Source of the DNA: Chloroflexota bacterium
Lineage (GTDB): Bacteria; Chloroflexota; Dehalococcoidia; SZUA-161; SpSt-899
Assembly (NCBI GenBank): GCA_013203045.1
Contig: JABMQN010000014.1
Location: 28,373 to 92,372 of the forward strand
Length of the DNA stretch: 64,000 nt
Direction of reading: 5' to 3'
This document shows, in pieces, positions 4,059-53,048 of this stretch. Both the position numbers and the translations under genes were made by a program. Position 1 is the stretch's first letter. Each line of letters opens with the position of its first letter. The notes below the pieces were generated by a model. It worked only from the letters and a program-made list of their open reading frames with translations. It made no database searches and had not been told where the DNA came from.

Positions 4059-4072
4059 GTTTCCTCCTAAAG

Positions 4073-5040: not shown

Positions 5041-5523
5041 CTAATTCTGAAACTGGTTTTCTCCCGTAAAAGTGAAAGAGAATTTCTTTATCTTTAGATA
5101 TACCATTGTCTCGGCGCTTATCAAACCAGCAATCTCACCAAGCTCATTCCTGATGAATTGCGATAAATCCTCTGGCTCTCTGAACATCACTATTGTTATT
5201 ATGTCATACCGTCCAGCAGTGATAATCACAAAAGGAACATTTACGTAGGATGCAAGCTTGTTGGCAACGCTGTCGACCTCGCCAGGCTGAACTTTTATTC
5301 CCATCGTCGCCACTGTCTTGTATCCCTGCGTTTGTGGGTCAGCAACAGCAACGATACTGATAATGCCGTCATCGATAAGAGAATTTAGTTTGCGGCGCGC
5401 TGTAGCTTTGCTGGTACCAATCAACCTGGCAAGTTCGGAATTGGTTTGTCTACCATCGGCCTCAAGCTCTTCGATCAGTTTTATATCTAACGCATCGAGA
5501 TTACGGGATGCACTGTCTTTCAT
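5041..5523 (-). CDS. Lrp/AsnC family transcriptional regulator
   Basis: 160 aa. It has an N-terminal HTH (LDALDIKLIEELEADGRQTNSELARLIGTSKATARRKLNSLIDDGII) and a C-terminal RAM/AsnC_trans_reg domain. Confidence 0.85.
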   Translation of the reverse strand: MKDSASRNLDALDIKLIEELEADGRQTNSELARLIGTSKATARRKLNSLIDDGIISIVAVADPQTQGYKTVATMGIKVQPGEVDSVANKLASYVNVPFVIITAGRYDIITIVMFREPEDLSQFIRNELGEIAGLISAETMVYLKIKKFSFTFTGENQFQN

Positions 5524-5643
5524 GATATGCCTACTGAACCCTCATCACACATGTTTATACTTGAACAGTCTAGTTAGTAACACCCGGATTTTCTATTGCT
5601 ATTTACAGGTTAGTTGAAAAGGATATCTGTCAACCCAACTACT

Positions 5644-6132
5644 CTATTCCTGGGGACTAAAGTTAGTACTTGCAAGATACGTAAAGGATGCTTTTGTAAT
5701 CTTCAGGTTGATCATAGTCTCAACGCTCGTCAAACCTTCAATATTGCCCAGTTCTTTTCTGAGGAAATTGGATAAATCCTCTGGCTCACGAAACATCATC
5801 CATGCAATTATGTCATAGCGTCCAGTGCTAATAATCACAAAATGAACATTTTTGTAAGCAGCAAGCTTGTCTACTACAGCATCGACATCTCCAGGACGCA
5901 CATTAATACCCATAGTTGCTACAGTTCTGTACCCGAGAGCAGGTGGACTGGCAACAGCAACTACCTTGATAATACCGTCATCGAGGAGTCTTCGCAGTTT
6001 TCTGCGTGCTGTCGCCTTGCTGGTACCTATCTTTTTAGCGAGATCCGTGTTAGTTTGTCTACCATCAACTTCTAACTCCGTGATTAACATTAGATCCATT
6101 TCGTCGAGATTATCCAGAGTATCAGTCTTCAT
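5644..6132 (-). CDS. Lrp/AsnC family transcriptional regulator, tandem paralog
   Basis: 162 aa. It shares the same domain order as 5041-5523 and is about 60% identical to it by eye. Confidence 0.85.
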   Translation of the reverse strand: MKTDTLDNLDEMDLMLITELEVDGRQTNTDLAKKIGTSKATARRKLRRLLDDGIIKVVAVASPPALGYRTVATMGINVRPGDVDAVVDKLAAYKNVHFVIISTGRYDIIAWMMFREPEDLSNFLRKELGNIEGLTSVETMINLKITKASFTYLASTNFSPQE

Positions 6133-6461
6133 AAAACACTTTCCTCGCTGTTAAAATTTGAAGATTTTGAATCCGTTCGTAGCAATTGTGGTGCCTTATT
6201 GCGCCATAATTGAGCAATCTTCGCACAAAAGGAACACCGGATAATATATGCTACATGATTTATCTACACAGGTCAATGACTTGCTCTGTTCAATTCCCTG
6301 TATGCTCTTTGGTCGCAGCACAGGAACTGGCAAATACCATGTAGATTACTGGGAGGATTGAGGAACAGGTGTTGGAAATAGTTAAGTCCCAAGTCTAGGT
6401 CATACTATTAAGCATACGCAACTTGCAGAGAGATAACGAGAGTTCGTGCTTGCAAATATGT

Positions 6462-7556
6462 CTAACTTCCGCGGAATGAATATGGATGTAGCCGATAAGA
6501 TAGCTTAAATTTCTCGATAAAACCAGCTACTCCTTTTGGTGCCATTTTGATGAACATCATCACACCCAAACCGCCAACTATGTACTTCAATGCAAAGTGT
6601 ATCTGTGCGGCCCATCGAGAAGGCATATGATCAACTGCCCATGGAGCAACGTAGTCCATTACGATGATATCCATCCCATCGAAGAATATCACACCTGAAA
6701 AGACGGCACTGATAGACCCCGTTCCACCTATGACTATCATGCCCATATAAAATATTGAATCCCCGATGTCAAATTGGCTGGCATTTACTCTGAGCTGGAA
6801 ATATGCCCACAACCATCCAGCCACTCCAGCAAAACAGCTGGCAATAAAGAAAGCAAGTAGTTTGCTACGGATCAGGTTTATTCCGGCTACTTCAGCCGCC
6901 AAATCATTATCACGAACGGCTACTAGAATTCTTCCTGTGTTAGATCTCTGAATACCCAGGGTAATATATGTTCCCACAATAACAAAGATCACAGTTAAAA
7001 TATACAGGCTCGTATCTGAACCGAAGTCAAACGGCCCCAGAGTAAGAGGTTCCAGTTGAATTCCAGTGAAACCGCCTGTATAGTCCCACCATGCGTTGTC
7101 CGAACCTTTTGGTCCGGGAAACCGTAGCAACCACAGAATTATATCTTGACTTACCCAGGTTGCGATAGCCAAATAGAATAGTTTCAACCTGACAGTGATG
7201 AGCCCTACGACCAAACCCACTAAACCAGCCGCAAGAGCTGACAATGGCAGACAAAGCCAACCGTTGATATCCCACTGTGATGAAAGTATAGCAACTGTGA
7301 AGGCGCCTATCGCCATAAAGCCCGCTTGCCCTAGAGAGGCCAAACCGCAAAGACCAACCAGTATATGTAATCCAAGCAATACTATGATGTGTATCCCTAT
7401 TATTATAAGCTTGGTTAGCCAGTAAGGAGAAGCTATGTGAGGAACAAGTAAAAAGAAAACTAGGAGAACCACCAGTAGTAAAAACCACTGAGTCGAGGTT
7501 TTGAAAATCTTCAGTTCTGATGCGTATTTGGTACTAAAAACTCCGCCTGGTAACAT
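6462..7556 (-). CDS. Branched-chain amino acid (HAAT family) ABC transporter permease, LivM-like
   Basis: 364 aa polytopic membrane protein. Its C-terminal region resembles LivM permeases and it sits directly downstream of a LivH-like permease. Confidence 0.7.
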   Translation of the reverse strand: MLPGGVFSTKYASELKIFKTSTQWFLLLVVLLVFFLLVPHIASPYWLTKLIIIGIHIIVLLGLHILVGLCGLASLGQAGFMAIGAFTVAILSSQWDINGWLCLPLSALAAGLVGLVVGLITVRLKLFYLAIATWVSQDIILWLLRFPGPKGSDNAWWDYTGGFTGIQLEPLTLGPFDFGSDTSLYILTVIFVIVGTYITLGIQRSNTGRILVAVRDNDLAAEVAGINLIRSKLLAFFIASCFAGVAGWLWAYFQLRVNASQFDIGDSIFYMGMIVIGGTGSISAVFSGVIFFDGMDIIVMDYVAPWAVDHMPSRWAAQIHFALKYIVGGLGVMMFIKMAPKGVAGFIEKFKLSYRLHPYSFRGS

Positions 7557-7558
7557 GA

Positions 7559-8815
7559 CTAAATCCGCCTTATTCCTTTCAGACCGAATAAACCATGCGG
7601 CCTAACAATAATGATCACTAACAATAGAACATAGGGCATAATAGCTCTGAATTGTGGGATATAGGGATCAATATAAGCCCCCGAAAGCTGCTCTGTCAAC
7701 CCGACAATTAGCGCCGCGAGAAAACATCCGCCAATAGACTCCAAACCTCCCAGGACCATTACCGGGAGAGCACGAAATAGGCCGTAGATACCCATACCAC
7801 CGCTCTCACTGTATACGGCTGTTTTAGTTGCCAGAAGGATACCGCCGATGGCTGCTGTCAGGGCTCCCACAACCCAGGCGATTGCATAAACTCGCTTGAC
7901 ATAGATGCCTAAACTTTGACTCACAACACTGTTCTCAGAAACACATCGCATTGCAAGGCCAGTTTTGGTGAATCTGAAGAAAAGGACAAAAATTACAAAC
8001 AAAAGTGTGCCTGTGATGAAAGCGGATAAGAGATCCCAGGGAAGTCGGTAATTTCCAACTTCGATCGTACCTGAAGGGAATAATTGAGGCATTATTTGTG
8101 ATTTACCCTCAAATACCAGTACACACCCACCGTGGAGGAGCAGGAACCCAAAAAAGACGGCTAACATGAAGGTCATCAAGGGGCTTGCACCAATCATTCC
8201 CCTGAACACTAAACGATCAGTATATAATCCAAAGACCACTGCAGCAAAAGTGAGTATAGTTAGCCCAACAATGCGGAGCCACCAATATGTAAGATGATCG
8301 CCACTTAATTCTCCCCACACAAATATCCCAAACCCTATCGTAGCACAAATCCCAAATGCTACCCCGAACTGTCCAAATTGTCTCCTATTTGTAATTCTAA
8401 TAGCCATAACAGCTACAATCAGCCCCAAAGTAATGAGAACATAGGACTGGTTATCCCCTACTGCTAACAGCCACCAGGCCAGGAAAGTGAGGAACTGCAG
8501 CATTCCGCCCGCAGCCATATTGAGCACTCTGGTAGCCTTATATACCACCACCATACCCAGAGCAATGATGGAGTACATACCTCCCCACATCAGGCCACTC
8601 AAAAGAGCACCCGTAAGCTTGTCCCTTCCATCGCCTGTTAATACTTTAAAAACGCCAGGGACACCACAGTACAGAATTACCAAAACAATAGCAATAACTA
8701 CAGCTATTGCTATTGCCGCGATAAATGCGCTGCTCTTAGCCTTTTCCAGGAGAATGCGTATACTTGCTCCCGGTAGGCCTACTACTTTTCTTATTGCGTA
8801 CTTTTGAGCATCCAT
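7559..8815 (-). CDS. Branched-chain amino acid (HAAT family) ABC transporter permease, LivH-like, with an N-terminal extension
   Basis: 418 aa. The LivH-like core starts near residue 70 (LLSGLMWGGMYSIIALGMVVVYKATRVLNMAAGGM). It ends 3 nt before the next gene's start. Confidence 0.7.
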   Translation of the reverse strand: MDAQKYAIRKVVGLPGASIRILLEKAKSSAFIAAIAIAVVIAIVLVILYCGVPGVFKVLTGDGRDKLTGALLSGLMWGGMYSIIALGMVVVYKATRVLNMAAGGMLQFLTFLAWWLLAVGDNQSYVLITLGLIVAVMAIRITNRRQFGQFGVAFGICATIGFGIFVWGELSGDHLTYWWLRIVGLTILTFAAVVFGLYTDRLVFRGMIGASPLMTFMLAVFFGFLLLHGGCVLVFEGKSQIMPQLFPSGTIEVGNYRLPWDLLSAFITGTLLFVIFVLFFRFTKTGLAMRCVSENSVVSQSLGIYVKRVYAIAWVVGALTAAIGGILLATKTAVYSESGGMGIYGLFRALPVMVLGGLESIGGCFLAALIVGLTEQLSGAYIDPYIPQFRAIMPYVLLLVIIIVRPHGLFGLKGIRRI

Positions 8816-8832
8816 CTCTGTGCCTACATTAG

Positions 8833-10062
8833 CTATTGTTCGATCCTGCTTTCACCAGGATCGTTGAACATAACTCCGTCTTGAATTGAAGCATATATTT
8901 GCTTGAGATTAACCCCAATGGCATGGAAGAACCTGAGTGTCTCCGGGGCGACTATGCCCCCTGCCGCGTAAGCAACTTTCGTTCTGTCCAATCCATGTTT
9001 ATCTCTCAACGGCCTAAATACCATATGTTCCCAAAACAAACTGGCTGACTTAACAAAAGGGCTTACGCTGTTCCCTTTGAGTAAGGCGTCTGTCTCTCGG
9101 AATCCATTTGACACCCCTCGATTGAAAACCATTCGTTTTAGTCCGGTTCCACCCGCCATGTTTGATTGAATGGCTATCGATAGCTGGTCCCACATTTGCG
9201 ATGGATATGCCAGGGTGTGTGGCGATATCTCCCTCAAGTCCTCTTCAGCTGTCTCACCACTCTCAGCAAAATTGAGCCTTCTTCCCGTTAAAAGCGAGAC
9301 TGTAAATCCCAGCACTTGTTCAAAGAACCACCCCGGATTCATAACACAGACGTACTCGTGCTTATCCTCAATCGGATTTGCAGCCAAGACAGTCTCCCCA
9401 GACGAAATCAGGATCCCATGAGTTAGAGGCAACAGTTCAACGGAGTCAGAGCTTTTCCACACGCATAGAAACATCGCAATATCATTGCCGCTTCCCTGAG
9501 ATAACGCTCTCTCAAAATTATCTGCGGAGTTTTGCGAATATCCATTGCCTTTGTTGGCTAGGGTACTCATATTTATCAGGCCAGCATCATCGTAATGCTT
9601 GAGTCCTTTATCGTTCCAGTAGATGATCTTTTCAAGTGAAGGAAGAGAATCTCTAATTCCCAGAAGCTTATCTACCTGCTCCTGATCTTGCGCAAATGCA
9701 AATTTCGGCTGCGCATGTTCAAATATAAGACTGGTTTGCTCAGCCGTACGAACGGGATTCACTCCAACTACTATCCCACCATAAGTTTGAATTGCCAATT
9801 GACAGCAGAACCAATCCGGATCATTGTCTCCGAGAATGGCTACCTTGTCCCCATTTTTAAGTCCTAAATCCGCCAAACCGGCAAAAATGTCTTTTATTCT
9901 ATCACAGCATTCCTGCCAACTGCGTTCCTTCCAGACACCTTGTTCCTTTTTACGCAGGGCAACTTGGGTATCGCCCCAATGATTACAGTTACGAACCAGG
10001 AGTTTAGGGAGTGTATCCTTGTTATCCCTAGAAAGTCGTGCAGTAGTCTTGCTTTTGCTCAT
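8833..10062 (-). CDS. AMP-dependent synthetase/ligase family protein, divergent, with no canonical TSGTTGxPKG P-loop recognised
   Basis: 409 aa. The N-terminal half resembles long-chain acyl-CoA synthetases (VAILGDNDPDWFCCQLAIQTYGGIVVGVNP...). The canonical AMP-binding motif appears degenerate and the C-terminal subdomain seems absent. It is the first gene of an operon with the two permeases. Confidence 0.4.
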   Translation of the reverse strand: MSKSKTTARLSRDNKDTLPKLLVRNCNHWGDTQVALRKKEQGVWKERSWQECCDRIKDIFAGLADLGLKNGDKVAILGDNDPDWFCCQLAIQTYGGIVVGVNPVRTAEQTSLIFEHAQPKFAFAQDQEQVDKLLGIRDSLPSLEKIIYWNDKGLKHYDDAGLINMSTLANKGNGYSQNSADNFERALSQGSGNDIAMFLCVWKSSDSVELLPLTHGILISSGETVLAANPIEDKHEYVCVMNPGWFFEQVLGFTVSLLTGRRLNFAESGETAEEDLREISPHTLAYPSQMWDQLSIAIQSNMAGGTGLKRMVFNRGVSNGFRETDALLKGNSVSPFVKSASLFWEHMVFRPLRDKHGLDRTKVAYAAGGIVAPETLRFFHAIGVNLKQIYASIQDGVMFNDPGESRIEQ

Positions 10063-10577
10063 TATTTTTGCCGGCTCTGCCCCATTTGAGGCGATGTAAT
10101 TCTTTCAGTTTTGCACACGATATCTGCGGTTTTTCTTGACAAATGGGGATACTCAACTGTTTGGGTCTGTGTCCCTTATCTGAAGTCTTCTGCTTGTCAA
10201 ATTCCGGTGGCAAGCTAAGAGGCCGAGTACGAAGTGCAACTCTGAGGTCTTCATATTTTTGGCGATTCTAACATTCTGCCAGAGTAAATGTCAAGTCAAT
10301 CATTGCATAATTCACATAATGATCAATCAGTAATTTCATTACACACAACAAGGCAAATCCATTCTTGAAATATGAATTTTAGAAGTGCGGCTAATTGTAT
10401 ATCGACATTTGGAATACTTCTGTAAGTGTTCAACTGTATTCTGCCGTATTCTTTAGCTTTAACCATCATTGTCAAACATCATCAACACTGTGCTTACTTG
10501 ACTGAGATATGTACAAGACGTAGTATATAGTGAAAAAGCCCCACAAAGGCTTATAGTTCGAAAGGGAGACATGATAA

Positions 10578-11336
10578 ATGAGTAAATTAAATGGTAAAGT
10601 AGCTTTAGTAACAGGCGGATCTGCAGGGATTGGCAGGAGTACAGCTTTGGCATTTGCTCGAGAGGGTGCCAGAGTGGTGGTGGCTGATTATGCCGTTGAT
10701 GGTGGTGAGGAAACAGTCCGGCTGATCAAGGAGGGTGGTGGTGAAGCTGTGTTCATAAAGGTTGATGTATCCATAGCTTCCGACGTGGAATCAATGGTAA
10801 ACAAAGCAATTGAGACATATGGCCGCCTTGATTGTGCTGCCAATAATGCCGGGATAAGTGGACCAATTGTTGCCAGTATTGATCTGGAGGAAAAGGATTG
10901 GGATCAAGTTGTAAATATTGATCTTAAAGGCGTTTGGCTTTGTATGAAATACGAGATACCCCACATGCTTAACCAGGGTGGTGGTTCTATCGTCAATACC
11001 GCATCAATGGCAGGTATTGTCGGGTTTCCGGCTCAAGCTCCCTATGTAGCCAGTAAACATGGTGTTATCGGGCTTACCAAGTCAGCCGCACTTGAATATG
11101 GCACCCAGGGTATTCGGGTAAATGCCGTCTGCCCGGGGGTGATTCACACTTCGATGGTTGATTCGGTAATTGAGGTTATCCCCGATATTATTGAGACTTT
11201 GAATAAACAGGCACCGGTTGGCCGTATTGGTCAGCCACAAGAGGTGGCCGAGTGTATTTTATGGCTTTGTTCCGATGATGCATCTTTTGTCACTGGTCAT
11301 GCTCTGGTTGTCGACGGTGGCTATGTAGCCCAATAG
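10578..11336 (+). CDS. SDR family NAD(P)-dependent oxidoreductase
   Basis: 252 aa. It has the TGGSAGIGRSTALAFAREGARVVVAD dinucleotide-binding motif, a catalytic YxxxK (YVASKHG), and an AAGGGAG ribosome-binding site. Confidence 0.9.
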   Translation: MSKLNGKVALVTGGSAGIGRSTALAFAREGARVVVADYAVDGGEETVRLIKEGGGEAVFIKVDVSIASDVESMVNKAIETYGRLDCAANNAGISGPIVASIDLEEKDWDQVVNIDLKGVWLCMKYEIPHMLNQGGGSIVNTASMAGIVGFPAQAPYVASKHGVIGLTKSAALEYGTQGIRVNAVCPGVIHTSMVDSVIEVIPDIIETLNKQAPVGRIGQPQEVAECILWLCSDDASFVTGHALVVDGGYVAQ

Positions 11337-11377
11337 AAAACTTGTCACAAAAAGATCACAGTTTTTGAGAACCGGGA

Positions 11378-13276
11378 ATGAAGCGATATGATATCCTATT
11401 CCTGCCATCCGGACGGAGAGGGCCGATCAACGAAGGGGCAACTCTTCGAGACGCAGCTCACTCCCTTGGTGAAGGAATAGAAAGTATCTGTGGCGGGGAA
11501 GGTTCTTGTGGGAAATGCAGAGTTCGCGTTCTTGAAGGTAATGAACATGGCATCGTTTCTACAATCAGCCACCTATCTGGATTGACCGATATCGAGAAAC
11601 GATACGCTCAAGATTTTGACCTGCGACCAAATGAACGGCTCGCGTGCCAGGCTCGGATACATGGTAACCTGGCCATTTTTGTGCCAGAGGAAAGCCGTAC
11701 CGGTCGGCAGATCATCCTCAAATCTGCAGGGAAACAGACAATTGATATTGCACCGACTATCCGTAAGTACTTCCTTGATATTGCTCACACTGAGATCAAC
11801 AGTGCATCAAACCAAAAAGGCTGGCTATCGGCTGAATTAGCGGATCGCTTTAATCTACACGATGTAATTGTTGATAACTCTGTTTTAGAGACTTTCTCAA
11901 ATCTATCTCAGAACAAGGATCGAGGAATAACAATCACGGTCTGGGACAACAAAGAAGTAATCCGCGTTGAGTCGGGATACCATGAGAACGCATACGGCCT
12001 GGCGATAGACATTGGGACCACAACTATCGGAGGGTATCTATGTGATTTAGTCACTGGCGAGAACCTGGCCACTGAATCGATGATGAATCCTCAAATCCAG
12101 TTCGGAGAGGACATCATGACACGCATCAGTTACGCCAAATCCCACACTAATGGCCTCGCTGAACTCAACGACTGCATAATCGGTGCACTGAACCAAATGA
12201 TTGGCAACATTACTTCTCAAGTAGGATTGACTCCTGATGATATTGCAGAAACAGTAGTTGTGGGCAACACCGTGATGCATCATATCTTTCTGGGGCTCGA
12301 TATCTCTGGGTTGGCCTTTTGGCCATTCAAACCAGAGATAACACGATCAGTGAACAGGAAGGCGCGTGACCTCGGGCTTGGAGTCTTACCTTCTGCTAAT
12401 GTTCATGTCTTGCCAATTGAGGCAGGTTTTGTCGGAGCTGACAACGTAGGTGTACTAATCGCTGAGGAACCTTACAACCAAGACGAAATCCTGCTGATAA
12501 TTGATATAGGTACCAATGGTGAGCTGGTTATGGGGAATCAGCAACGGTTGCTTTCTGCTTCATGTGCTACAGGGCCAGCATTTGAGGGTGCGAACATCAA
12601 ATTTGGAATGCGCGCTGCACCCGGCGCTATCGATAGAGTTCGAGTTATCCCACAGACATTCGATTTGCGATTCACTGTTATCGGGAATGAAAAGTGGAAT
12701 ACAGAAATACCCTCGGCGGAAATCAAAGCATGCGGAATTTGCGGTTCGGGCATCATAGATGCCGTGGCTGAATTGTTCGTGGCGGGGCTTATCAAGAAAG
12801 ATGGCAGCTTTAACAAGACATTAAATTCGCCACGGTTACGACTCGATAAAGACGAGAAACCAGAGTTCGTCATTGCCTGGGCTTATGAAACTGCAATTAA
12901 TCAAGATATCACAGTAACCCAAAAAGATGTGCGTGCTATTCAACTTGCCAAAGCTGCGATCAATTCCGGAGCACAACTGATGCTGCGTCGACTGGGTATC
13001 GAACGACCGGATAAGGTTATTCTTGCCGGGGCTTTCGGCACGGTAATCGACCGCGAAAGGGCATTGGCAATCGGTATGTTCCCGGAATGTGATATTGAGG
13101 ATATCTATTCAATCGGTAATGCTGCCGGTGATGGTGCTCGCATAGCCTTGCTCAACAAAAACAAACGTCAAGAGGCCGATAAAATAGCTCGCGAGGTTGA
13201 GTATATTGAACTTACTGAAGACCCCGGTTTTCATGAAGTATTTATAGGGGCAACTCACTTTCCATCGAGGCAATAG
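11378..13276 (+). CDS. ATP-dependent reductive activator of corrinoid proteins, RACo/RamA-like: N-terminal 2Fe-2S ferredoxin plus ASKHA ATPase (COG3894)
   Basis: 632 aa. It has the plant-type ferredoxin cysteine motif CGGEGSCGKCRV...C near the N-terminus. The central and C-terminal part is an acetate/sugar-kinase-like fold typical of RACo. Confidence 0.8.
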   Translation: MKRYDILFLPSGRRGPINEGATLRDAAHSLGEGIESICGGEGSCGKCRVRVLEGNEHGIVSTISHLSGLTDIEKRYAQDFDLRPNERLACQARIHGNLAIFVPEESRTGRQIILKSAGKQTIDIAPTIRKYFLDIAHTEINSASNQKGWLSAELADRFNLHDVIVDNSVLETFSNLSQNKDRGITITVWDNKEVIRVESGYHENAYGLAIDIGTTTIGGYLCDLVTGENLATESMMNPQIQFGEDIMTRISYAKSHTNGLAELNDCIIGALNQMIGNITSQVGLTPDDIAETVVVGNTVMHHIFLGLDISGLAFWPFKPEITRSVNRKARDLGLGVLPSANVHVLPIEAGFVGADNVGVLIAEEPYNQDEILLIIDIGTNGELVMGNQQRLLSASCATGPAFEGANIKFGMRAAPGAIDRVRVIPQTFDLRFTVIGNEKWNTEIPSAEIKACGICGSGIIDAVAELFVAGLIKKDGSFNKTLNSPRLRLDKDEKPEFVIAWAYETAINQDITVTQKDVRAIQLAKAAINSGAQLMLRRLGIERPDKVILAGAFGTVIDRERALAIGMFPECDIEDIYSIGNAAGDGARIALLNKNKRQEADKIAREVEYIELTEDPGFHEVFIGATHFPSRQ

Positions 13277-16325: not shown

Positions 16326-16670
16326 CTAGTTCAACTCAATCTGATCAATTGACAATCGGGTATAGTGTTGACGATGCCCTCTCTTGCGACGATATCGTAT
16401 TTTATTCTTGTATTTGAATACAATAATCTTGCGCTTTCTATCCTGACGAACAATTGTGGCCTTAATCTTGGCTCCGTCAACAGCAGGTTGACCCACTGTG
16501 ATATTGTCCCCATCAGAAACAAACAAAACATTATCAAGTTCGACCGAGGAACCTTCGTCCCCGGGGATTTGTTCCACATCTATCACTTGGCCTGGTGAGA
16601 CCTTATGTTGTTTTCCTCCGGTAGCTACGATTGCGTAAATTGTTCTCCTCCCCCGAAAATTTCCCAGCAT
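16326..16670 (-). CDS. rplU: 50S ribosomal protein L21. The true start is probably at 16640 (ATT) or 16670 (ATG); the 162-aa ORF is over-extended
   Basis: The core IYAIVATGGKQHKVSPGQVIDVE...YKNKIRYRRKRGHRQHYTRLSI is canonical L21. GGGGGAGGAG sits inside the extended ORF 6 nt upstream of an ATT codon that would give a 104-aa protein. An alternative ATG lies 30 nt upstream. Confidence 0.9.
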   Translation of the reverse strand: MLGNFRGRRTIYAIVATGGKQHKVSPGQVIDVEQIPGDEGSSVELDNVLFVSDGDNITVGQPAVDGAKIKATIVRQDRKRKIIVFKYKNKIRYRRKRGHRQHYTRLSIDQIELN

Positions 16671-16797
16671 TTTGAATTCTACCAGTTGTAGCGAATTTGT
16701 CAAGTTTGAAAGGCGAGTATACAGTCGCAGCGCACTCTCGATTGCCAATTGGGGCTCATGTTTCCTGCAAATACTCAATTGAATTTGAGTGCATACA

Positions 16798-16832
16798 GGG
16801 TTGACATACAGCATAGCTTCATATATTGTACT
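16798..16832 (+). promoter_or_regulatory. Candidate sigma70-like promoter for the plus-strand methyltransferase operon
   Basis: TTGACA at 16800-16805, followed about 16-17 nt later by TATATT/TATTGT, about 75 nt upstream of the 16906 start. GAGGA lies 7 nt before that ATG. Confidence 0.3.
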
Positions 16833-16905: not shown

Positions 16906-17703
16906 ATGATCATAGTGGGTGAAAAGATTAACACAAGCCGTAGAATCATAAGAGAAGCGGTTGAAAATCGAGATGCTAACTTCATCATCAAAGTTGCACA
17001 GGATCAGGCGCAAGCCGGCGCAAACTATATTGATGTCAATGCCGGTACCTTTGTGGACAAAGAGATAGAAAATCTCTGCTGGTTAGTCGAAACCGTTCAA
17101 AGTTCACTCGATTATCCACTCTGCCTTGACAGTCCTAATCCAACAGCCTTAGCTGAAGCGATGAAGCTCCACAAAGGCGAACCGATGATAAACTCGATTT
17201 CTATGGAGGAAGACCGGCTTGGTCCCCTTCTGCCCGTGGTTACGTCTGGCCCATGTCAAATAATTGCTTTGTGTATGGGACAAGCCTCGATGCCAATAAC
17301 AGTTGAGGAAAGAGTAGACGTTGGTGCTCAACTCATTCAAAAGCTTACAGGTGAAGGCGTTCCAATTGAAAAAATATTCGTTGATCCGCTAATCCAACCG
17401 ATTTCAGTGGATACCAACATGGGTATTGCCGCACTTGGAGCCATTCGCAAGATAATAGACGATTTCCCCGGAGTAAATACGATCTGCGGCCTATCAAACA
17501 TTTCATTTGGTCTTCCGGAACGCCACATTATCAATCGCAATTTTCTGGCTTTGGCCATGTCGTACGGTTTGTCCGGTGCAATCATGGATCCAACCGATAT
17601 AAAGCTCACGTCTACACTTCTTTCGATTGAAATGCTACTAGGTAGAGATGAATACTGTGAAAAATTCATTGATGCCTATCAGGAAAAGCGAATTTCTGGA
17701 TAA
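16906..17703 (+). CDS. Pterin-binding methyltransferase, methyl-corrinoid:tetrahydrofolate methyltransferase (MtrH/AcsE-like)
   Basis: 265 aa, paralog of 1815-2621. It is the first gene of an operon that also encodes a corrinoid protein and MttB-family proteins. Confidence 0.8.
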   Translation: MIIVGEKINTSRRIIREAVENRDANFIIKVAQDQAQAGANYIDVNAGTFVDKEIENLCWLVETVQSSLDYPLCLDSPNPTALAEAMKLHKGEPMINSISMEEDRLGPLLPVVTSGPCQIIALCMGQASMPITVEERVDVGAQLIQKLTGEGVPIEKIFVDPLIQPISVDTNMGIAALGAIRKIIDDFPGVNTICGLSNISFGLPERHIINRNFLALAMSYGLSGAIMDPTDIKLTSTLLSIEMLLGRDEYCEKFIDAYQEKRISG

Positions 17704-17751
17704 AAGAAGTCTCGCCGGAGTGAAAAGAAATAAGCATAATGGAGGTCGAAA

Positions 17752-18390
17752 ATGAGTGAATTTCAGGCATTATCTGAAGCTGTACTCAAGGGAGACATCA
17801 AGACAGCGGTAGCGGAGACTCAGGCGGCCATGGATGCCGGGGCAAATATCCAGGACATCCTTGACACCGGTCTAATTGCTACCATGGACGAAGTGGGGGA
17901 TAGATTCTCAAAGGGGATTATCTTTGTCCCGCAGATGCTGCGATCGGCTAAAACCATGCAGGAATGCATGAAACTTATCACCCCATTATTCCAAAAGGGT
18001 GGCGTGACCTCCAAAGGGAAAGTGCTTATCGGAACCGTCAAGGGGGACTTGCATGATATTGGCAAGAACCTTGTTTTAATGATGATGGAAGGCGCCGGCT
18101 TTACTATCACAGACCTCGGAGTAGATGTCACTCCTGAAAAATTCGCCCAGAAAACTCAAGAAATCGAGCCTGATATCGTGGCGATGTCCGCACTTCTTTC
18201 AACGACAATGCCATCGATGCCCCTTACTATCGAAGCGCTTCAAAACGCTGGAGTGAGAGACAAAGTGAAAATTATGATCGGTGGAGCTCCTGTTACAGAT
18301 AAATATGCTCAAGAAATCAAAGCAGATGCCTATGCCTCAGATGCCGGTTCAGCAGTAACAAAAGCAAAAAGCTTGATGGGGATTTCCTAA
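17752..18390 (+). CDS. Cobalamin-binding corrinoid protein, MttC/MtbC-like
   Basis: 212 aa with the DxHxxG motif (VKGDLHDIGKNLV). It has a B12-binding cap followed by a Rossmann domain. Confidence 0.9.
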   Translation: MSEFQALSEAVLKGDIKTAVAETQAAMDAGANIQDILDTGLIATMDEVGDRFSKGIIFVPQMLRSAKTMQECMKLITPLFQKGGVTSKGKVLIGTVKGDLHDIGKNLVLMMMEGAGFTITDLGVDVTPEKFAQKTQEIEPDIVAMSALLSTTMPSMPLTIEALQNAGVRDKVKIMIGGAPVTDKYAQEIKADAYASDAGSAVTKAKSLMGIS

Positions 18391-18417
18391 CCTCTTGAAA
18401 GTAAATTCCGCATTGAA

Positions 18418-19878
18418 TTGAGTGAGGAAAACATGAATCCTATCGATATACCTACGTTTCAGCCTCGGTTGAAGGTCTTATCTCGAGAACAGGTTCTGGC
18501 GATCCACACGGCAGCACTGGAAATCCTGGAAAAGACAGGGTTTAGAATGGAGCATCCAGATGCCTTGAAAATGCTTGCGGATGCAGGTTGCAGAGTATCC
18601 GATGATAACTGGGTCAGAATGCCCGGTCATCTTGCTGAACAAGCTCTTAAGTCAGCTCCCAGACAGATTGCGTTACATGATCAGAAGGGTAACAAAACCA
18701 TGCCTCTGGTCGATGGCAATCCCTTCTATGGCACAGGTTCAGACACAACGTTCACACATGACCTCGAAACTGGACAACGGCGCCGCACAGTCCTTCAGGA
18801 TATAGCCAATTTCGCCAAACTGGTTGATGGGTTGGAGAATATTTCGTTTGCCATGTCAATGTCCAATCCGGAAGATGTCCCGATTGAAAATATCTATGTT
18901 TACGCTTTTGCAGAAATTGTTAAAAATACCAACAAACCTATCGTGTTCATATCAGATAGCGGTAAAGACATAGCAAAAATTCATCAGATTGCATGTGCAG
19001 TGGTGGGAGGTGAGGAGGAATTCCGCCGGAAGCCATTTATTCTAAATTATTCCGAAGCAATAAGTCCGCTAAGATTCCCTGAAAACGTAATGGAAAAGCT
19101 TATCTTCTGTGCGCAGAAAAGTATACCGATTTGCTTCCCCTCAGGTTCCAATGCAGGTGGTGGAGCGCCTATTACTCTGGCCGGTGCGATGGCTCTTGGG
19201 ATCGCTGAGAATCTAGTGGGATTAACGGTCCATCAAATGTTCGGTAAAGGGTCTCCGTTCCTATTTGGTCCAAACGTTAGTACGTTGGATATGAAATCGA
19301 CCGTTGTATCTTACGGATGCCCGGAGTGGGCACTAACACAGGCTGCTCTCGCTGATATGCGAGATGAACTCTATGGTTTGCCCATCTGGGCTTATTCAGG
19401 AGCATCGGATGCAAAGGTAATGGATGCTCAGGCTGGTGCAGAGGCCATGTTCTCAATAATTACATCAATGTTATCCCGCTGTAACTTGATCCACGATAAC
19501 GGATACCTCGAGTATGGTGGTATTTCATCACTCGAGATGGTGACGATGGTAAATGAGTTAGTAGCCATGAGCCGCTTCTTTGTCCAGGGGATCCCGGTCA
19601 ACGAGGAAACATTAGCTTTGGAAGCAATTCATCGGGTGGGGAGTGTGCCTGGTTCCATGTTCCTAACGGACGACCATACCTTTGATAATTTTACGCAGGC
19701 TCAGTTCATACCCAAACTTCTGGATCGGTCACGTTACGATACTTGGGAAGAAGAGGGGGCACAGGACTTCTACAAACGTTGTAACGTGGAGGCAAAGAGA
19801 ATTCTTGCTGAACATCAAGTGGAACCTAAATCAGATGAAATACTCCAAGCTATCGATAAAATTGTTCAAGGGGGATAA
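18418..19878 (+). CDS. MttB-superfamily (trimethylamine methyltransferase family) substrate:corrinoid methyltransferase, non-pyrrolysine
   Basis: 486 aa continuous ORF. It has the length and general features of the trimethylamine methyltransferase family and no in-frame TAG. It sits directly downstream of a corrinoid protein. Confidence 0.8.
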   Translation: MSEENMNPIDIPTFQPRLKVLSREQVLAIHTAALEILEKTGFRMEHPDALKMLADAGCRVSDDNWVRMPGHLAEQALKSAPRQIALHDQKGNKTMPLVDGNPFYGTGSDTTFTHDLETGQRRRTVLQDIANFAKLVDGLENISFAMSMSNPEDVPIENIYVYAFAEIVKNTNKPIVFISDSGKDIAKIHQIACAVVGGEEEFRRKPFILNYSEAISPLRFPENVMEKLIFCAQKSIPICFPSGSNAGGGAPITLAGAMALGIAENLVGLTVHQMFGKGSPFLFGPNVSTLDMKSTVVSYGCPEWALTQAALADMRDELYGLPIWAYSGASDAKVMDAQAGAEAMFSIITSMLSRCNLIHDNGYLEYGGISSLEMVTMVNELVAMSRFFVQGIPVNEETLALEAIHRVGSVPGSMFLTDDHTFDNFTQAQFIPKLLDRSRYDTWEEEGAQDFYKRCNVEAKRILAEHQVEPKSDEILQAIDKIVQGG

Positions 19879-19893
19879 CCAAGCGTTTTACTC

Positions 19894-21330
19894 ATGAAGA
19901 AGAGTTCGCCATTTTATCAACCGATTTCTCCTGAACACGTTCAGCAGATCGATCAGAAAGGACGCCGGATACTCGATGAAATCGGTATTTCAATCTCTGA
20001 TAGCACTTTTCGAGAAAGACTCGAAGATGCAGGCGCTCAGGTAGATCATGACAATGGGCGAGTTCGTTTTGGTGGAGACTGTCTCGATCGGCTCTTGAGT
20101 CGAGCCCCCTCTCAATTCATACTTTTCTCACGTGATGGCCGGAATGATATACACCTTGGTGAAGGTCATGTCTATTTTGGCAATGGTGGACGCGTGTTTC
20201 GCATTTTAGATATGAGAACGGGCGGTTATCGTTACACCATGATGCGCGATATTGCCAATACAGCAATTTTAGTAGACCATCTGGACTATATACAGTTTTA
20301 TATCATTGCGTGTCAAGCCCACGACTTGGAAAGAGATAGTTATCATCTAAACGATTTTTATCGGGCTTTTTACCACACTACAAAGCATGTGATGGGCGGT
20401 TGTGATGATACAGATGGCGCCAATCAAATGTGGGAGCTTGCCTGTTTAATAGCAGATGGGGAAGAAAATCTCAGAGAGCGGCCTTTCATATCAGCCATTA
20501 CAAATGTCATTAGCCCACTGACAATCGATACCAATACTCTGCAAATTATTGAATTCTGTACCTCAAAAGGGATTCCAATTACCTGTGCTCCAGCTCCTAT
20601 AGCTGGGGCAACAGCTCCGGCAACACTAGCCGGAACGCTCTCCCAACTTCACGCGGAATCGCTTGCTGGAGTAGCAGTCACTCAGGCCATAACCCCAGGA
20701 GCAAAGATTCTCTATGGTGCAGTTCCTTCTGCCATGGATTTGCGAACGATGGAATACACCATGGGCACAGTCGAAATGGCGATGATGAATGCTGCTGCGG
20801 TTCAATTGGCAAAACTATATGATTTACCAATCTATGCCTCGGCAGGTCTTACCGAATCCAAACGGCCAGATATTCAGGCTGGCTCTGAAAAGCTCTTTTC
20901 CAATTTGACAGTAGCAATGGCCGGAGCCGATTATATCCATCTGGCAGCCGGAATGCTGGATTCCGGTAATTCTATTTCTTACGAACAGTACGTAATTGAT
21001 AACGAAATCATTGGGATGATTCACAGGATACTGTCAGGCATAGAGGTGAACGAAGATACACTTGGGTTTGATGTTATCGAACAGGTTGGACCTGGCGGCA
21101 ACTACGTGTTGGAAGATCATACGGTTGATCATATGATGGATGAGTTCTTCTATCCCAATTTGAGTGTGCGATCCAATTTCGACGTGTGGGAAGAGAAAGG
21201 CAGGCCAGATATGTTGAGCCGCGCTCATGAAATGGTTGATAAAACCTTAAACCATGGTAGGGAAGGCCGGTTGGACCCGCGTTTGATCTCGATGATAAAG
21301 GATACCTTTCCTGCCATAATCAAGATCTAA
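19894..21330 (+). CDS. MttB-superfamily methyltransferase, second tandem paralog, non-pyrrolysine
   Basis: 478 aa. It is similar to 18418-19878 along its whole length, including the shared segments ...GTGSDTT.../...GNGGRVF... and ...YDTWEEEG.../...FDVWEEKG.... Confidence 0.8.
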   Translation: MKKSSPFYQPISPEHVQQIDQKGRRILDEIGISISDSTFRERLEDAGAQVDHDNGRVRFGGDCLDRLLSRAPSQFILFSRDGRNDIHLGEGHVYFGNGGRVFRILDMRTGGYRYTMMRDIANTAILVDHLDYIQFYIIACQAHDLERDSYHLNDFYRAFYHTTKHVMGGCDDTDGANQMWELACLIADGEENLRERPFISAITNVISPLTIDTNTLQIIEFCTSKGIPITCAPAPIAGATAPATLAGTLSQLHAESLAGVAVTQAITPGAKILYGAVPSAMDLRTMEYTMGTVEMAMMNAAAVQLAKLYDLPIYASAGLTESKRPDIQAGSEKLFSNLTVAMAGADYIHLAAGMLDSGNSISYEQYVIDNEIIGMIHRILSGIEVNEDTLGFDVIEQVGPGGNYVLEDHTVDHMMDEFFYPNLSVRSNFDVWEEKGRPDMLSRAHEMVDKTLNHGREGRLDPRLISMIKDTFPAIIKI

Positions 21331-21331
21331 G

Positions 21332-21949
21332 ATGTCTTCACCCGAAGAGACCAGAGAGCCTGTACGCATCATTGCTTGTGGTGTATTTAAGCCTGCACTA
21401 CGGCATCTTCACTTGGAAGATCGTTACCCCAATGTTCGAGTTACATTCCTGCCCTCAGTGTTACATCTAAGGCCACCAGATCTAAGGAACTTCTTGCGCA
21501 AAGAGATTCAATCTGCCCACCAACGCAACGAACGGGTCATATGCCTCTATGGGGATTGTTTTCCCGATATTGATGACTTCTGTGATCAATATGACGTAAC
21601 AAAAGTACCCGGAGCTTATTGTTACGAGATGTTTCTCGGACCAAAACGTTTCAAGCAGCTTTTAGATGAAACCGCTGGAACATATTTCATGGAGAAAGAC
21701 CTCATAATGAATTTCGAGCAACATTGCCTGATTCCTTTGGAACTCCATGATAAAACAATGAGGGAATACTGTTTTGAACACTATAAGAAACTGTTGTATG
21801 TACGGCAACCGGCCGATCCTGACCTAGAATCACAGGCAAATGAAATAGCTGATTTCCTTGAATTGGCACTGGATGTCAAAGATGCCGATTATTCTTTTCT
21901 TGAAAATAAACTTGATGAGTTGATAAAATCTAAATCTTCTCAAAAATGA
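21332..21949 (+). CDS. DUF1638 domain protein
   Basis: 205 aa, paralog of 1153-1818 (RIIACGVFKPAL versus FITCGALGQEV; ...VICLYGDC... versus ...LVVVYGECG...). It is translationally coupled to the upstream MttB paralog, with a 1-nt gap. Confidence 0.65.
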   Translation: MSSPEETREPVRIIACGVFKPALRHLHLEDRYPNVRVTFLPSVLHLRPPDLRNFLRKEIQSAHQRNERVICLYGDCFPDIDDFCDQYDVTKVPGAYCYEMFLGPKRFKQLLDETAGTYFMEKDLIMNFEQHCLIPLELHDKTMREYCFEHYKKLLYVRQPADPDLESQANEIADFLELALDVKDADYSFLENKLDELIKSKSSQK

Positions 21950-22001
21950 ATACTTCACACCATCTTTATCGGCACCTTCAACTCGTGCAAGGGCTATTAG
22001 A

Positions 22002-24332
22002 ATGAAAGAGTCTCACAATCCAAAGGCCAGAAAAAAGAGAACTGAATACATTTGGCTGAATGTTTTACCGGATGACCTCTGGTTGAATGTCCGTAGAGGA
22101 GATACGCTCTTCGATGTGTTACAAGAGGCCGGTATCGAATTGGATGCTGATTGTGGCGGATTGGGGAAATGCGGTAAATGCAAGGTCAGAATTCTCACTT
22201 CAATTAAGCCTCCATCCTCAGATGAGGAAGGGTTTCTCAACCAAGAAGAAATCGATCAGGGTGTTCGCCTTGCCTGCCGCACCCAGATTAATAGCGATAT
22301 GGTTGTTCAAGTAGGTGAAACCGAGATTGGCACTGAATATGTGCAGATTCTGAAATCAGGTCATCGGCCACTCTTCCAATTGGATCCTCTTGTCAAAAAA
22401 CAATTTATTACATTGGCTACCCATCACAAAGACGAGGGACTTTCTGACTTCGATAGAATAAAACTGGCAATGGGACCCGACTACCTGGATATGACTGCCT
22501 CACTGAGTTGCCTACGTACGTTACCTCAATCAATGAAAGAAACTGAAGCTCATGGAGCAGCGGTCCTTCATGAAAAGCATTTGTTAGATTGGCAAGGTTG
22601 GGGGAAACTGGCATATGGTTATGGGTTGGTCTTTGATCTTGGTACCACAACTTTAGTTGGCAAGCTCATCGACCTTTCTGATGGCACAGAAGTGGCTGTT
22701 ATTTCTCGGCTCAACGGACAAATCAGGTATGGATCAGATATAATCAGTCGGCTCCAATATGTTAAAGATAATCCCAATGGCCTCGCGCGACTTCATAATC
22801 TTCTCATAGGAAATCTTAATAGAATTACCAGGCGCCTTGTAGAAGTGGGAGGTTTAGTTACCAATGACATCTTTATCGCTGTTGCAGCCGGTAATACTAT
22901 TATGTTGCATCTTCTCCTTGGTCTACCTCCCGACGGAATAGCGGAAGCCCCATTTGCACCGGTGCTTAGTGACGGTATGACCATAAAGGCATCAGACATC
23001 GATCTACAGCTACACCCGGAAGCTCTGCTCTACACCATGCCAATGAAATCAGGCTATATCGGCGGGGATTTGATTAGTGTCATTCTCGCTTCCGGAGCTA
23101 CTGAACAGGAAGATAAAATCATTCTTGGACTAGATCTCGGTACTAACGGGGAGATTTTTTTAGGAAACCGCAAGAGATTGATGACTTGTTCCGCGGCAGC
23201 AGGACCCGCTCTGGAAGGTGCAAGAATTTCCTCAGGGATGATAGCCAAAGACGGAGCAATCGAGGCAGTAGGATTCGAAAAAGGAAATCTCCAATATCGT
23301 GATATTGCCAATATCAAGCCTAAAGGGCTCTGCGGTAGTGGACTTGTAGATTTGATAGCAGTACTTCTACAGCTCGGAATTATCGATGAGGAAGGGTTAA
23401 TCACCACTCCTAGGATGAGCATAGCACAGGGCTTGGCTCCAAAGGTAATCAATAAAAATGGTGTTAATAATTTTCTTGTAGCTCCCGCTGAAGAAAGCTA
23501 TGATGACAAACCCATATTTTTAACTCAGCAGGATGTCCGCGAATTGCAACTTGCCAAAGCGGCTGTCGCTGCTGGTATAGCAACTCTCATGGACGAAATG
23601 GGAATTGGGGTTGAGGACATCGATCAAGTTTATATGGCCGGAGCGCTTGGCAACTACGTCAACCCACACAGTGCAATTCGCATTGGGCTTATTCCTAGAA
23701 TAGATACTGACAAGATCACATCGTTGGGAAACGCGGCCAGCACCGGTGCATCCATGGCGCTATTATCCAAATTTTACTGGCAAATGGCCAACGAGCTTAT
23801 AGACTTCATTGAACACATTGAACTTTCTTCACGGCTTGACTTCAATGAATACTATGTTGAGCACATGGATTTCACCAGAGAAGAGCCTCTTGATGTTCAT
23901 CATGAAGAAGTGGAAAATGTCATGAAAACCATAGCGGTAGGTTCAGTAATGACTCGCGACTTTCCTGCGATGAGCTCCACTATGCTGGCCAGAGAGATTG
24001 CCAATATGTCACGCGATACGGGCCACCACGGATTCCCGGTTGTTGATGAGGAAGGACACCTGGTGGGGGTTGTCACACTCGCAGACCTGGCAAGTTGCTT
24101 GCGAGCCGGAAACGCTGATCTCCCAGTGGGTGATATTGTCACCAAGTTCCCTTTGGTAGCTTTTCCGGACCAGTCATTGTATGAAGTTCTAACCGCCACT
24201 GATGAAGACTACGGACGCATCCCGGTTGTTTCCAGAGAAGACGAAGGCCACTTGCTTGGGGTGCTACGGCGCCAGGACATTATCCGTGCCTATCGCAACA
24301 AACTTGCAAAATTTGTACAGGCAGAAGCATAA
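22002..24332 (+). CDS. RACo-type corrinoid reductive activase (2Fe-2S ferredoxin plus ASKHA ATPase) fused to a C-terminal tandem CBS pair
   Basis: 776 aa. It has an N-terminal ferredoxin motif DADCGGLGKCGKCKV...C. The core is colinear with the 632-aa RACo at 11378-13276 (shared segments include DLGTTT.., ..AGNT.MLHLLLGL.., ..GTNGE.. and ..AAAGPA.EGA.I..GM). The last ~140 aa form two CBS motifs (VMTRDFPAMSS...GFPVVDEEGHLVGVVTLADL; FPLVAFPDQSLYEV...RIPVVSREDEGHLLGVLRRQDI). Confidence 0.8.
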   Translation: MKESHNPKARKKRTEYIWLNVLPDDLWLNVRRGDTLFDVLQEAGIELDADCGGLGKCGKCKVRILTSIKPPSSDEEGFLNQEEIDQGVRLACRTQINSDMVVQVGETEIGTEYVQILKSGHRPLFQLDPLVKKQFITLATHHKDEGLSDFDRIKLAMGPDYLDMTASLSCLRTLPQSMKETEAHGAAVLHEKHLLDWQGWGKLAYGYGLVFDLGTTTLVGKLIDLSDGTEVAVISRLNGQIRYGSDIISRLQYVKDNPNGLARLHNLLIGNLNRITRRLVEVGGLVTNDIFIAVAAGNTIMLHLLLGLPPDGIAEAPFAPVLSDGMTIKASDIDLQLHPEALLYTMPMKSGYIGGDLISVILASGATEQEDKIILGLDLGTNGEIFLGNRKRLMTCSAAAGPALEGARISSGMIAKDGAIEAVGFEKGNLQYRDIANIKPKGLCGSGLVDLIAVLLQLGIIDEEGLITTPRMSIAQGLAPKVINKNGVNNFLVAPAEESYDDKPIFLTQQDVRELQLAKAAVAAGIATLMDEMGIGVEDIDQVYMAGALGNYVNPHSAIRIGLIPRIDTDKITSLGNAASTGASMALLSKFYWQMANELIDFIEHIELSSRLDFNEYYVEHMDFTREEPLDVHHEEVENVMKTIAVGSVMTRDFPAMSSTMLAREIANMSRDTGHHGFPVVDEEGHLVGVVTLADLASCLRAGNADLPVGDIVTKFPLVAFPDQSLYEVLTATDEDYGRIPVVSREDEGHLLGVLRRQDIIRAYRNKLAKFVQAEA

Positions 24333-53041: not shown

Positions 53042-53048
53042 ACAAAAT

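Follow-up and report, generated by a model that had tools for sequence, protein, structure and literature searches.

A conserved six-gene corrinoid cassette with a fixed pair of non-pyrrolysine MttB-superfamily proteins in Chloroflexota and Desulfobacterota

Methyl transfer from quaternary amines to tetrahydrofolate (THF) has been reconstituted with four components, namely a corrinoid-loading methyltransferase of the MttB family (MT1), a corrinoid protein, a pterin-binding methyltransferase (MT2) and a RamA-type activase (PMC12155760, PMC13080624). All characterised MttB members that lack pyrrolysine act on acidic quaternary amines (PMC12155760, PMC13080624), while members without pyrrolysine whose substrate is unassigned are named MtxB (10.1101/2022.06.20.496735). 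No more than six substrates have been established across the superfamily, and its non-pyrrolysine homologues, which are among the most abundant annotated 'methylamine' genes in anoxic sediments, are routinely interpreted as methyltransferases of trimethylamine or glycine betaine. Here we describe a six-gene cassette (positions 16906-24332, plus strand) in which two MttB-superfamily genes, B1 and B2, lie side by side. It is found in a 64,000-nucleotide (nt) stretch of a Chloroflexota genome (contig JABMQN010000014.1, positions 28,373 to 92,372; hereafter the window, to which all positions refer). The type of system is well known; its fixed two-MT1 architecture and its lack of the known substrate-binding pattern are new.

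The MtgBCA system of Desulfitobacterium hafniense (MtgB structures 2QNE and 9YCE) resembles the cassette in having an MttB-family MT1 without pyrrolysine, a corrinoid protein with a DxHxxG motif, a pterin-binding MT2 and a RamA/RACo-type activase. A 2026 study of the glycine betaine site of MtgB described cation-pi contacts by Y97 and F356 and binding of the carboxylate by R312 and H348, and reported R312 to be conserved in every characterised non-pyrrolysine member, i.e. MtgB, MtcB, MtpB, MtyB and MthB (PMC13080624). Both cassette proteins match MtgB over their full length at ~30% identity (B1 to 2qne/9yce, 1e-65; B2 to 9yce, 4e-69), and B2 has Leu at the pyrrolysine column in common with it. 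However, MtgBCA has one MT1 gene where the cassette has two as a fixed pair, Y97, R312 and F356 are conserved in neither B1 nor B2, and the cassette operon includes a DUF1638 gene and the activase gene, the latter encoding a CBS domain pair in the window.

In Eubacterium limosum, several non-pyrrolysine MttB members (MtpB, MtcB and MtyB) work through one corrinoid protein and one THF methyltransferase, MtqC and MtqA, with RamQ as activase; the same organism uses MthB/MthC/MthA for phosphocholine. An initial annotation of the window had B1 and B2 sharing a single corrinoid protein, and MtqC, which serves several MttB members, is a precedent for such sharing (PMC12155760). Unlike B1 and B2, the E. 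limosum members were separately assayed, have growth substrates of their own, and none is described in a fixed adjacent pair. They also retain the R312-type Arg and take acidic substrates, features by which their published description, rather than a sequence comparison, sets them apart from B1 and B2 (PMC13080624).

Pyrrolysine-containing MttB of Methanosarcina barkeri, solved with its partner MttC (7XCL), belongs to the same fold family as B1 (2e-57) and B2 (8e-60), and functions as a dimer whose two subunits dock the corrinoid protein together. It shares a Tyr at the R312 position with B2 and a Gly110-Thr111 pair with B1; in contrast to it, B1 and B2 have Ala or Leu in place of the UAG-encoded pyrrolysine, have His for Tyr364, and would belong to a pathway whose acceptor is THF instead of coenzyme M. 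Marine Alphaproteobacteria carry, in their split methionine synthase and MtgBCD(E) systems, the same accessory module of corrinoid protein, pterin-binding methyltransferase, RamA-like activase and DUF1638. In Ruegeria pomeroyi, N-osmolytes also induce two MtgB-like proteins, but their locus tags, SPO2108 and SPO2134, are non-consecutive, and the genes are thus not adjacent as B1 and B2 are. The alphaproteobacterial genes are scattered whereas the cassette is compact, and their homocysteine methyltransferase is absent from the cassette.

Six consecutive plus-strand open reading frames (ORFs) make up the cassette (Table 1). Successive genes are separated by gaps of 48, 42, 15, 1 and 52 nt, i.e. 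a tight operon, with a single promoter-like site upstream, within the 91 nt that separate gene A from the divergent L21 gene. The coordinates, read from an ORF list of the 14-27 kb region, and the domains assigned with Pfam and NCBIfam agree with the six-gene methyl-transfer operon described in the initial annotation. Its characterisation as corrinoid-dependent and THF-linked, with two full-length non-pyrrolysine MttB genes and one corrinoid protein gene, is likewise supported by these domains and the NF005719 match of A.

Table 1. Features of the cassette and of a second methyl-transfer operon nearer the start of the window (the first operon).
Feature	Positions	Strand	Length	Remarks
Putative promoter-like site	16801..16829	+		TTGACA, 17-nt spacer, TATTGT; consensus scan, 10/12 matches
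A, pterin-binding methylcorrinoid:tetrahydrofolate methyltransferase (MT2)	16906..17703	+	265 aa	MtgA/MtqA-like
C, corrinoid (cobalamin-binding) protein	17752..18390	+	212 aa	Cap domain, Rossmann B12 domain, DxHxxG
B1, non-pyrrolysine MttB-superfamily protein	18433..19878	+	481 aa	ORF open from TTG 18418
B2, second non-pyrrolysine MttB-superfamily protein	19894..21330	+	478 aa	
DUF1638 protein	21332..21949	+	205 aa	PF07796, 1.4e-26
RACo-type activase	22002..24332	+	776 aa	N-terminal [2Fe-2S] ferredoxin domain, ASKHA ATPase, C-terminal CBS pair
First operon, second DUF1638 protein	1153-1818	-		
First operon, pterin-binding methyltransferase	1815-2621	-		
First operon, MtmB-family protein	2718-4058	-		Full length, no in-frame TAG; PF05369, 2.7e-52
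First operon, corrinoid protein	4073-4708	-		

Both B1 and B2 belong to the MttB superfamily. PF06253 (MTTB) matches them at 290 and 382 bits, respectively, against a cutoff of 25, over profile positions 26-489 of 500, and sequence matches of E 1e-41 to 4e-69 across ~460 residues, which include 4yyc (1e-52 to B2), predict homology to solved TIM-barrel structures. In the equivalog model of true MttB, TIGR02369, they reach only 386 and 410 bits (cutoff 525). Neither ORF contains an in-frame TAG, as the initial annotation had stated, and where M. barkeri MttB has pyrrolysine-334, the alignment places GCA (Ala, 19402-19404) in B1 and CTT (Leu, 20848-20850) in B2. In current usage both would be named MtxB. 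The length previously given for B2 stands, while the 486 residues given for B1 probably have to be shortened to those in Table 1: translation most likely starts at ATG 18433 and not at TTG 18418, because a GAGGA ribosome-binding site lies 4 nt upstream of this ATG and B1 orthologues are 480-482 residues long.

B1 and B2 have hundreds of relatives at 70-97% identity, and wherever a source is named, it is an uncultured member of the Chloroflexota or Dehalococcoidia. Scanning a single genome for each GTDB species with B1 as seed gave 80 loci at 73-97% identity, of which 43 are from Chloroflexota (mostly Dehalococcoidia), 32 from Desulfobacterota, 2 from Nitrospirota and 3 from other groups. The nearest lies on a contig of an uncultured Dehalococcoidia metagenome-assembled genome (MAG) (CAZWIP010000010.1, 97%), and the carriers include closed MAG chromosomes as well as an isolate, Desulfoferrobacter suflitae DRH4 (Desulfobacterota; NZ_JAIBKA010000002.1, 427353-448795). 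In all, the pair occurs in many sediment bacteria; at least 80 species-level genomes carry the cassette, and a B2 relative occurs on more than 500 metagenome stretches.

Comparison of the six window proteins with the 80 loci by tblastn shows that the order A-C-B1-B2-DUF1638-RACo is held wherever the contig is long enough. B2 follows immediately 3' of B1 in 71 of the 72 loci with room for it; in the reverse test, a B2-seeded scan of metagenomes, B1 lies immediately 5' of B2 in 46 of 48 independent loci with room. By the same measure, A is upstream of C and B1 in 61/66 loci, DUF1638 follows B2 in 58/66, and RACo falls within the cassette in 51/56. The spacer between B1 and B2 is usually 13-15 nt, and a closed Dehalococcoidia MAG has a 4-nt overlap. 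When all ORFs of the 80 loci were clustered, the six cassette genes alone recurred; genes resembling asparagine synthase, S-adenosylmethionine (SAM)-dependent methyltransferases, 2-oxoacid:ferredoxin oxidoreductase and MetH-activation proteins appear in at most 15 loci. Because the flanking genes are not conserved, we regard the six genes as the unit, and this cassette is conserved, self-contained and transferable, and has presumably spread horizontally. Both MttB genes are under strong purifying selection, with ratios of nonsynonymous to synonymous substitution rates (dN/dS) relative to the nearest relative of 0.058 (B1) and 0.060 (B2), and over greater distances none of the other five cassette proteins has a dN as low as that of B1. 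In the window itself, B1 and B2 share one reading frame with only TAA and four codons between them, and one stop-codon change would yield a fusion.

Such retention of the pair across phyla is hard to reconcile with the earlier proposal that B1 and B2 have two different substrates; near-obligate co-inheritance fits linked roles, either as successive steps or within a heteromer, better. A B1-B2 obligate heterodimer or higher heteromer would form a single MT1, in which one subunit holds the main catalytic site and the other mainly provides docking or specificity, or in which both sites act on the same substrate. Although we rate it as somewhat unlikely, this arrangement, the chief alternative to our reading, would account for the co-inheritance and for the close spacing or overlap of the genes. 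In the MttB-MttC crystal, each MttC touches both subunits of the MttB dimer, in which the partner subunit steadies the catalytic pair through its C-terminal dimerization loop, residues 396-452 (PMC9842639); B1 and B2 could accordingly act as two homodimers or as a heterodimer. This loop is conserved in B1 and B2 (mean column conservation 0.86 and 0.87) and is their most similar region; yet its 45% identity is not diagnostic, as loop identities among other family members are 28-42% (most pairs 35-42%). B1 is also unusually conserved, at least 73% across phyla, as expected of a protein with several partners. On the other hand, invariant pocket motifs are found in both proteins and neither resembles a degenerate scaffold, one partner is missing in loci L066 and L145, and the solved members of the family are all homo-oligomers.

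The initial annotation had taken the absence of an amber codon as the signature of betaine-type demethylases. We aligned MtgB, MttB and the Sinorhizobium meliloti homologue 4YYC, transcribed from alignments in the PDB, with 120 orthologues each of B1 and B2. The MtgB R312 column holds Trp in 121/121 sequences of the B1 group; in the B2 group it holds Tyr in 119/121, as in M. barkeri MttB, and Arg in one of the 121. The S. meliloti homologue, unlike B1 and B2, retains the Arg. At the F356 column we find Gly in B1 and Gly or Ala in B2, and at the Y97 column small polar residues, Thr or Ser in B1 and Asn or Gly in B2; a His lies at or beside the H348 column in both, where the alignment is ambiguous. 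The pyrrolysine column (MttB 334) is occupied by Ala or Ser in B1 and by Leu, Val or Ile in B2. Gly110 and Tyr364 activate pyrrolysine and are 100% conserved in pyrrolysine MttB (PMC9842639); of these, Gly110 is retained in B1 and is Ala or Gly in B2, while the Tyr364 column is His in 121/121 B1 and 107/121 B2 orthologues.

Neither group thus carries the substrate residues of MtgB (Y97, R312, H348 and F356) as a set, nor the R312-type Arg of the acidic quaternary amine demethylases MtcB, MtpB, MtyB and MthB. Because the R312 equivalent is replaced in both groups, the active site does not support a betaine-type assignment; the lack of an amber codon excludes true MttB, yet is insufficient for the betaine-type label. 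Phe, Trp or Tyr also occupies the R312 column in 123 of 141 full-length relatives of B1, in which the pyrrolysine column is mainly Cys or Ala, and for this reason the missing Arg is a trait of a large uncharacterised part of the superfamily and no peculiarity of this locus. Other pocket residues are invariant. In B1, which retains the Gly110-Thr111 pair, an Asp, a second Asp and a Glu are invariant in the aligned loops GTGSD, IHD and LEY, and together with the Trp they suggest a non-acidic cationic substrate. In B2, an invariant GNGGR loop aligns to the Y97 loop of MtgB, and through its Arg the protein could still bind an acidic group.

On this evidence it is unlikely that B1 and B2 are two independent betaine-type demethylases, acting on unrelated acidic quaternary amines through a common corrinoid protein and THF methyltransferase. 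Such a scheme would agree with the acidic substrates of every characterised non-pyrrolysine member, with the use of MtqC and MtqA in common by MtpB, MtcB and MtyB (PMC12155760), and with the invariant Arg and the His near H348 in B2; in addition, glycine-betaine-amended seep sediment was enriched in Chloroflexi MttB-type genes (PMC8547467). It conflicts with the replacement of R312 by Trp or Tyr and with the loss of the aromatic pair Y97 and F356 in both proteins. Independent substrates moreover predict frequent loss of single genes, whereas the pair is retained almost without exception, and the cassette has no linked betaine transporter in the 80 loci.

The description of B1 and B2 as tandem paralogs, implying local duplication, could not be upheld either. 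They are 33% identical by BLASTP and 31% over trimmed alignment columns, over which each is 30% identical to D. hafniense MtgB and 30-32% identical to M. barkeri MttB. Since they are no closer to one another than to MtgB or MttB, B1 and B2 are not local or recent duplicates and would represent two anciently separated lineages. An exhaustive HMMER search with B1 as query, over 1.84 billion cluster representatives, gave 1394 family members at E <= 1e-30. A single 50% cluster (74% to the query) takes in all B1 orthologues, and no other relative exceeds 44% identity; B2, at 241 bits, would rank under the 150 best clusters (all at least 253 bits), so that B1 has over 150 closer relatives than B2, counted as clusters at 50% identity. 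In a neighbour-joining tree, B1 falls within a large uncharacterised clade with Phe, Trp or Tyr at the R312 column, and B2, with motifs of its own, groups with MtgB, S. meliloti 4YYC and pyrrolysine MttB and not with the B1 clade in 78/100 bootstraps.

We looked up the four closest relatives of B1 outside its orthologue group. Three of them visibly stand as single MttB genes and the fourth, P0243, lies on a contig too short to tell; because three of the four are solitary, the pairing would seem specific to the cassette. No Rosetta-stone fusion of two MttB domains was found among the relatives, the long ones fusing MttB to corrinoid, pterin-binding or homocysteine-methyltransferase domains. One B1 relative of 972 residues (P0338) joins MTTB, B12-binding and pterin-binding domains, and with them all three components of the system, in one polypeptide. 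Another, of 1136 residues (P0321), has MTTB fused to a MetH-like chain of homocysteine S-methyltransferase, partial pterin-binding, B12 cap and B12-binding domains.

We tentatively favour a corrinoid-dependent substrate:tetrahydrofolate methyltransferase system in which two catalytic loading enzymes serve one pathway. B1 and B2 would both act as MT1, passing a methyl group from a methylated onium-type compound to the Co(I) form of the single C, and A would transfer it from methyl-Co(III)-C to tetrahydrofolate. To bring oxidised Co(II)-C back to Co(I), the RACo-CBS activase, somehow aided by DUF1638, would spend ATP together with a low-potential electron. B1 and B2 would work in one catabolic route, removing successive methyl groups of one compound or handling two products of a single pathway; that their substrates are unrelated seems less likely. 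We take both enzymes to be catalytic because invariant pocket motifs and strong constraint are found in both, and their roles to be linked in one route because the pair is almost never separated across three phyla.

Several points weigh against this two-enzyme, one-route scheme. Clustering of flanking ORFs across the 80 loci revealed no linked transporter, kinase or downstream enzyme, and the genomic context therefore names no substrate. Two loci, the only clear exceptions to the pairing, indicate that each MttB type can persist alone: in L066, a Caldilineaceae MAG (8399-11440), two tandem B1-type genes (69% and 74% to B1) occur with B2, A and C absent within 10 kb, and in L145 (metagenome contig Ga0180431_10034012) RACo is followed by C and then B2, with B1 absent. 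To our knowledge, there is no precedent for two MttB-family enzymes in sequential demethylation. MtgB uses neither dimethylglycine nor sarcosine (PMC13080624). Our literature search found no paper on the B1/B2 pair or on either clade, neither of which has a characterised member. The pocket assignments are drawn from alignment to two crystal structures at ~30% identity, and the loops moved between alignments, notably at the Y97 and H348 columns. The tree, being neighbour-joining, is rough; its sample is skewed to relatives of B1 and lacks MtcB, MtpB, MtyB and MthB.

The partner genes are consistent with the THF-linked scheme that we favour. A matches Pfam Pterin_bind (6.9e-18) and exceeds the cutoff of NF005719, the NCBIfam model of methyl-THF:corrinoid methyltransferases, with 321 bits against 259, as expected of an MT2. 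An identification of A as AcsE, the methyltransferase of the carbon monoxide dehydrogenase/acetyl-CoA synthase (CODH/ACS) system, was ruled out by its CODH_ACS_meth score of 139 against 370. C has the B12-binding_2 and B12-binding domains of a corrinoid protein, with the motif D99-L-H101-D-I-G at residues 99-104; its top NCBIfam matches, MtgC-like and pyl_corrinoid, are both under their cutoffs, and its dN/dS is 0.025 relative to locus L001. The activase has Fer2, RACo_linker, Raco_middle and RACo_C_ter domains, all over their Pfam cutoffs, along with two CBS domains and four Cys in its ferredoxin domain (51, 57, 60 and 92); it is AcsV- and RamA-like, yet under both equivalog cutoffs. A long RACo of ~770-850 residues, fitting the presence of a CBS pair, is encoded by ~14 of 64 cassette homologues, the others being ~645 residues long; domains were confirmed for the window protein, and the form of the homologues is judged from their size. 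A CBS pair would suggest that adenosyl ligands control the reactivation of the corrinoid protein in one sub-lineage. At the RACo position of the closed MAG CP070667.1, just a 184-residue Fer2 fragment is called.

DUF1638 is required for the split methionine synthase of Phaeobacter inhibens and is co-distributed with a RamA-like protein (bioRxiv 10.1101/192971), and it is more abundant in R. pomeroyi grown on N-osmolytes (PMC12478193). By analogy, the cassette protein may be an accessory protein genetically tied to RamA-like corrinoid reactivation. The same comparison raises the opposite direction of methyl flow, like that of a split methionine synthase, in which A would load C from methyl-THF and B1 and B2 would pass the methyl group to an acceptor. 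A, C and DUF1638, together with the RamA-like protein, are the exact accessory set of the P. inhibens and R. pomeroyi enzyme, whose corrinoid protein and MT2 serve both directions there (10.1101/192971; PMC12478193); P0321 fuses an MttB domain to a homocysteine S-methyltransferase, pterin-binding and B12-binding chain; and the cassette is highly conserved and set among housekeeping genes. We nevertheless hold a biosynthetic role to be highly improbable, as the characterised MttB-family enzymes all donate methyl groups to Co(I), amine methylation from methyl-THF is thermodynamically unfavourable, and a Pfam search of the cassette gives no homocysteine-binding domain. Halomethane (chloromethane or dichloromethane) dehalogenation, considered on account of the Dehalococcoidia host, was rejected, since CdmB, MecE/MecC and CmuA belong to the UroD superfamily and not to MttB (PMC13222342).

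A more specific proposal, which we regard as distinctly improbable, is that B1 and B2 jointly make up an enzyme independent of pyrrolysine, whether as a heterodimer or as a pair acting in two steps, that demethylates non-acidic amines, for example trimethylamine, dimethylamine, choline or dimethylethanolamine. The absence of the acid-binding Arg from both proteins, the Gly-Thr pair and the Asp, Asp and Glu of B1 and the MttB-type Tyr of B2 are hints in this direction. If it were true, Dehalococcoidia and sulfate reducers without pyrrolysine machinery could draw directly on the principal pool of methylamines in marine sediments and would compete there with methylotrophic methanogens. Whatever it is, the substrate of so discrete and very widespread a cassette, lying outside the known substrate-binding pattern, would reveal what a major part of the superfamily, so far uncharacterised, does and would clarify the methyl input to the Wood-Ljungdahl pathway in subsurface Dehalococcoidia and sulfate reducers; it could also alter estimates of which organisms compete with methanogens for methylated compounds. 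Direct testing is possible because one carrier, D. suflitae DRH4, is a cultured isolate; we found no published physiology of D. suflitae on methylated compounds.

Lastly, the cassette and the first operon (1153-4708, minus strand) had been viewed together as a demethylation hub. The first operon is real, and its substrate-side enzyme is of the MtmB and not the MttB family. Around the cassette in the 160 related loci scanned, we found neither the MtmB-like gene nor the first-operon genes as a set, but only isolated weak matches to single first-operon proteins, in L050, L060, L100 and L145; the co-location of cassette and first operon is for this reason no conserved feature, and the hub is at most a loose one. 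The MtmB-like protein is distant from M. barkeri MtmB (1l2q, E 2.9e-27), with the Pyl202 position falling in a gap. A function for a non-pyrrolysine MtmB homologue was first reported in 2026, for MtqB of a methanogen, which acts on tetramethylammonium and choline (PMC13044021); a bacterial homologue of this kind linked to THF appears uncharacterised and may be no less interesting than the MttB pair. Upstream of the first operon, positions 5041-10062 (minus strand) encode two tandem Lrp/AsnC regulators, two branched-chain-type ATP-binding cassette permeases (BPD_transp_2) and an AMP-binding enzyme, which could provide uptake and regulation for the substrate of that operon. Between the two methyltransferase operons, beside an SDR gene, lies a second RACo-type activase (11378-13276, plus strand, 632 residues) that has no CBS pair.

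In other genomes the cassette itself has neighbours of related type. In nine loci from Desulfobacterota and some Dehalococcoidia (L018, L028, L035, L048, L051, L059, L070, L077 and L078) it adjoins extra solitary MttB, corrinoid or pterin-binding gene sets at 30-46% identity to the window proteins, and in the Desulfobacterota loci among these, as well as in others, asparagine-synthase-like and SAM-methyltransferase-like genes adjoin it, which suggests larger methyl-transfer islands in those genomes. In the window, apgM, tpiA and miaA lie downstream of the cassette and the remainder consists of housekeeping genes; scans of the window matched no riboswitch or other RNA element in Rfam and no tRNA gene. 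The L21 ORF upstream of gene A (16326-16814, minus strand) has 162 codons, of which the L21 domain spans residues 60-159 only, and the homologue in L081 has 108 residues; its annotated start is probably too far upstream. Farther downstream (52235-53639, plus strand), neighbouring genes encode a DUF3786 protein that carries an Fe-S domain (PF04060) and a predicted metal-binding DUF2284 protein.

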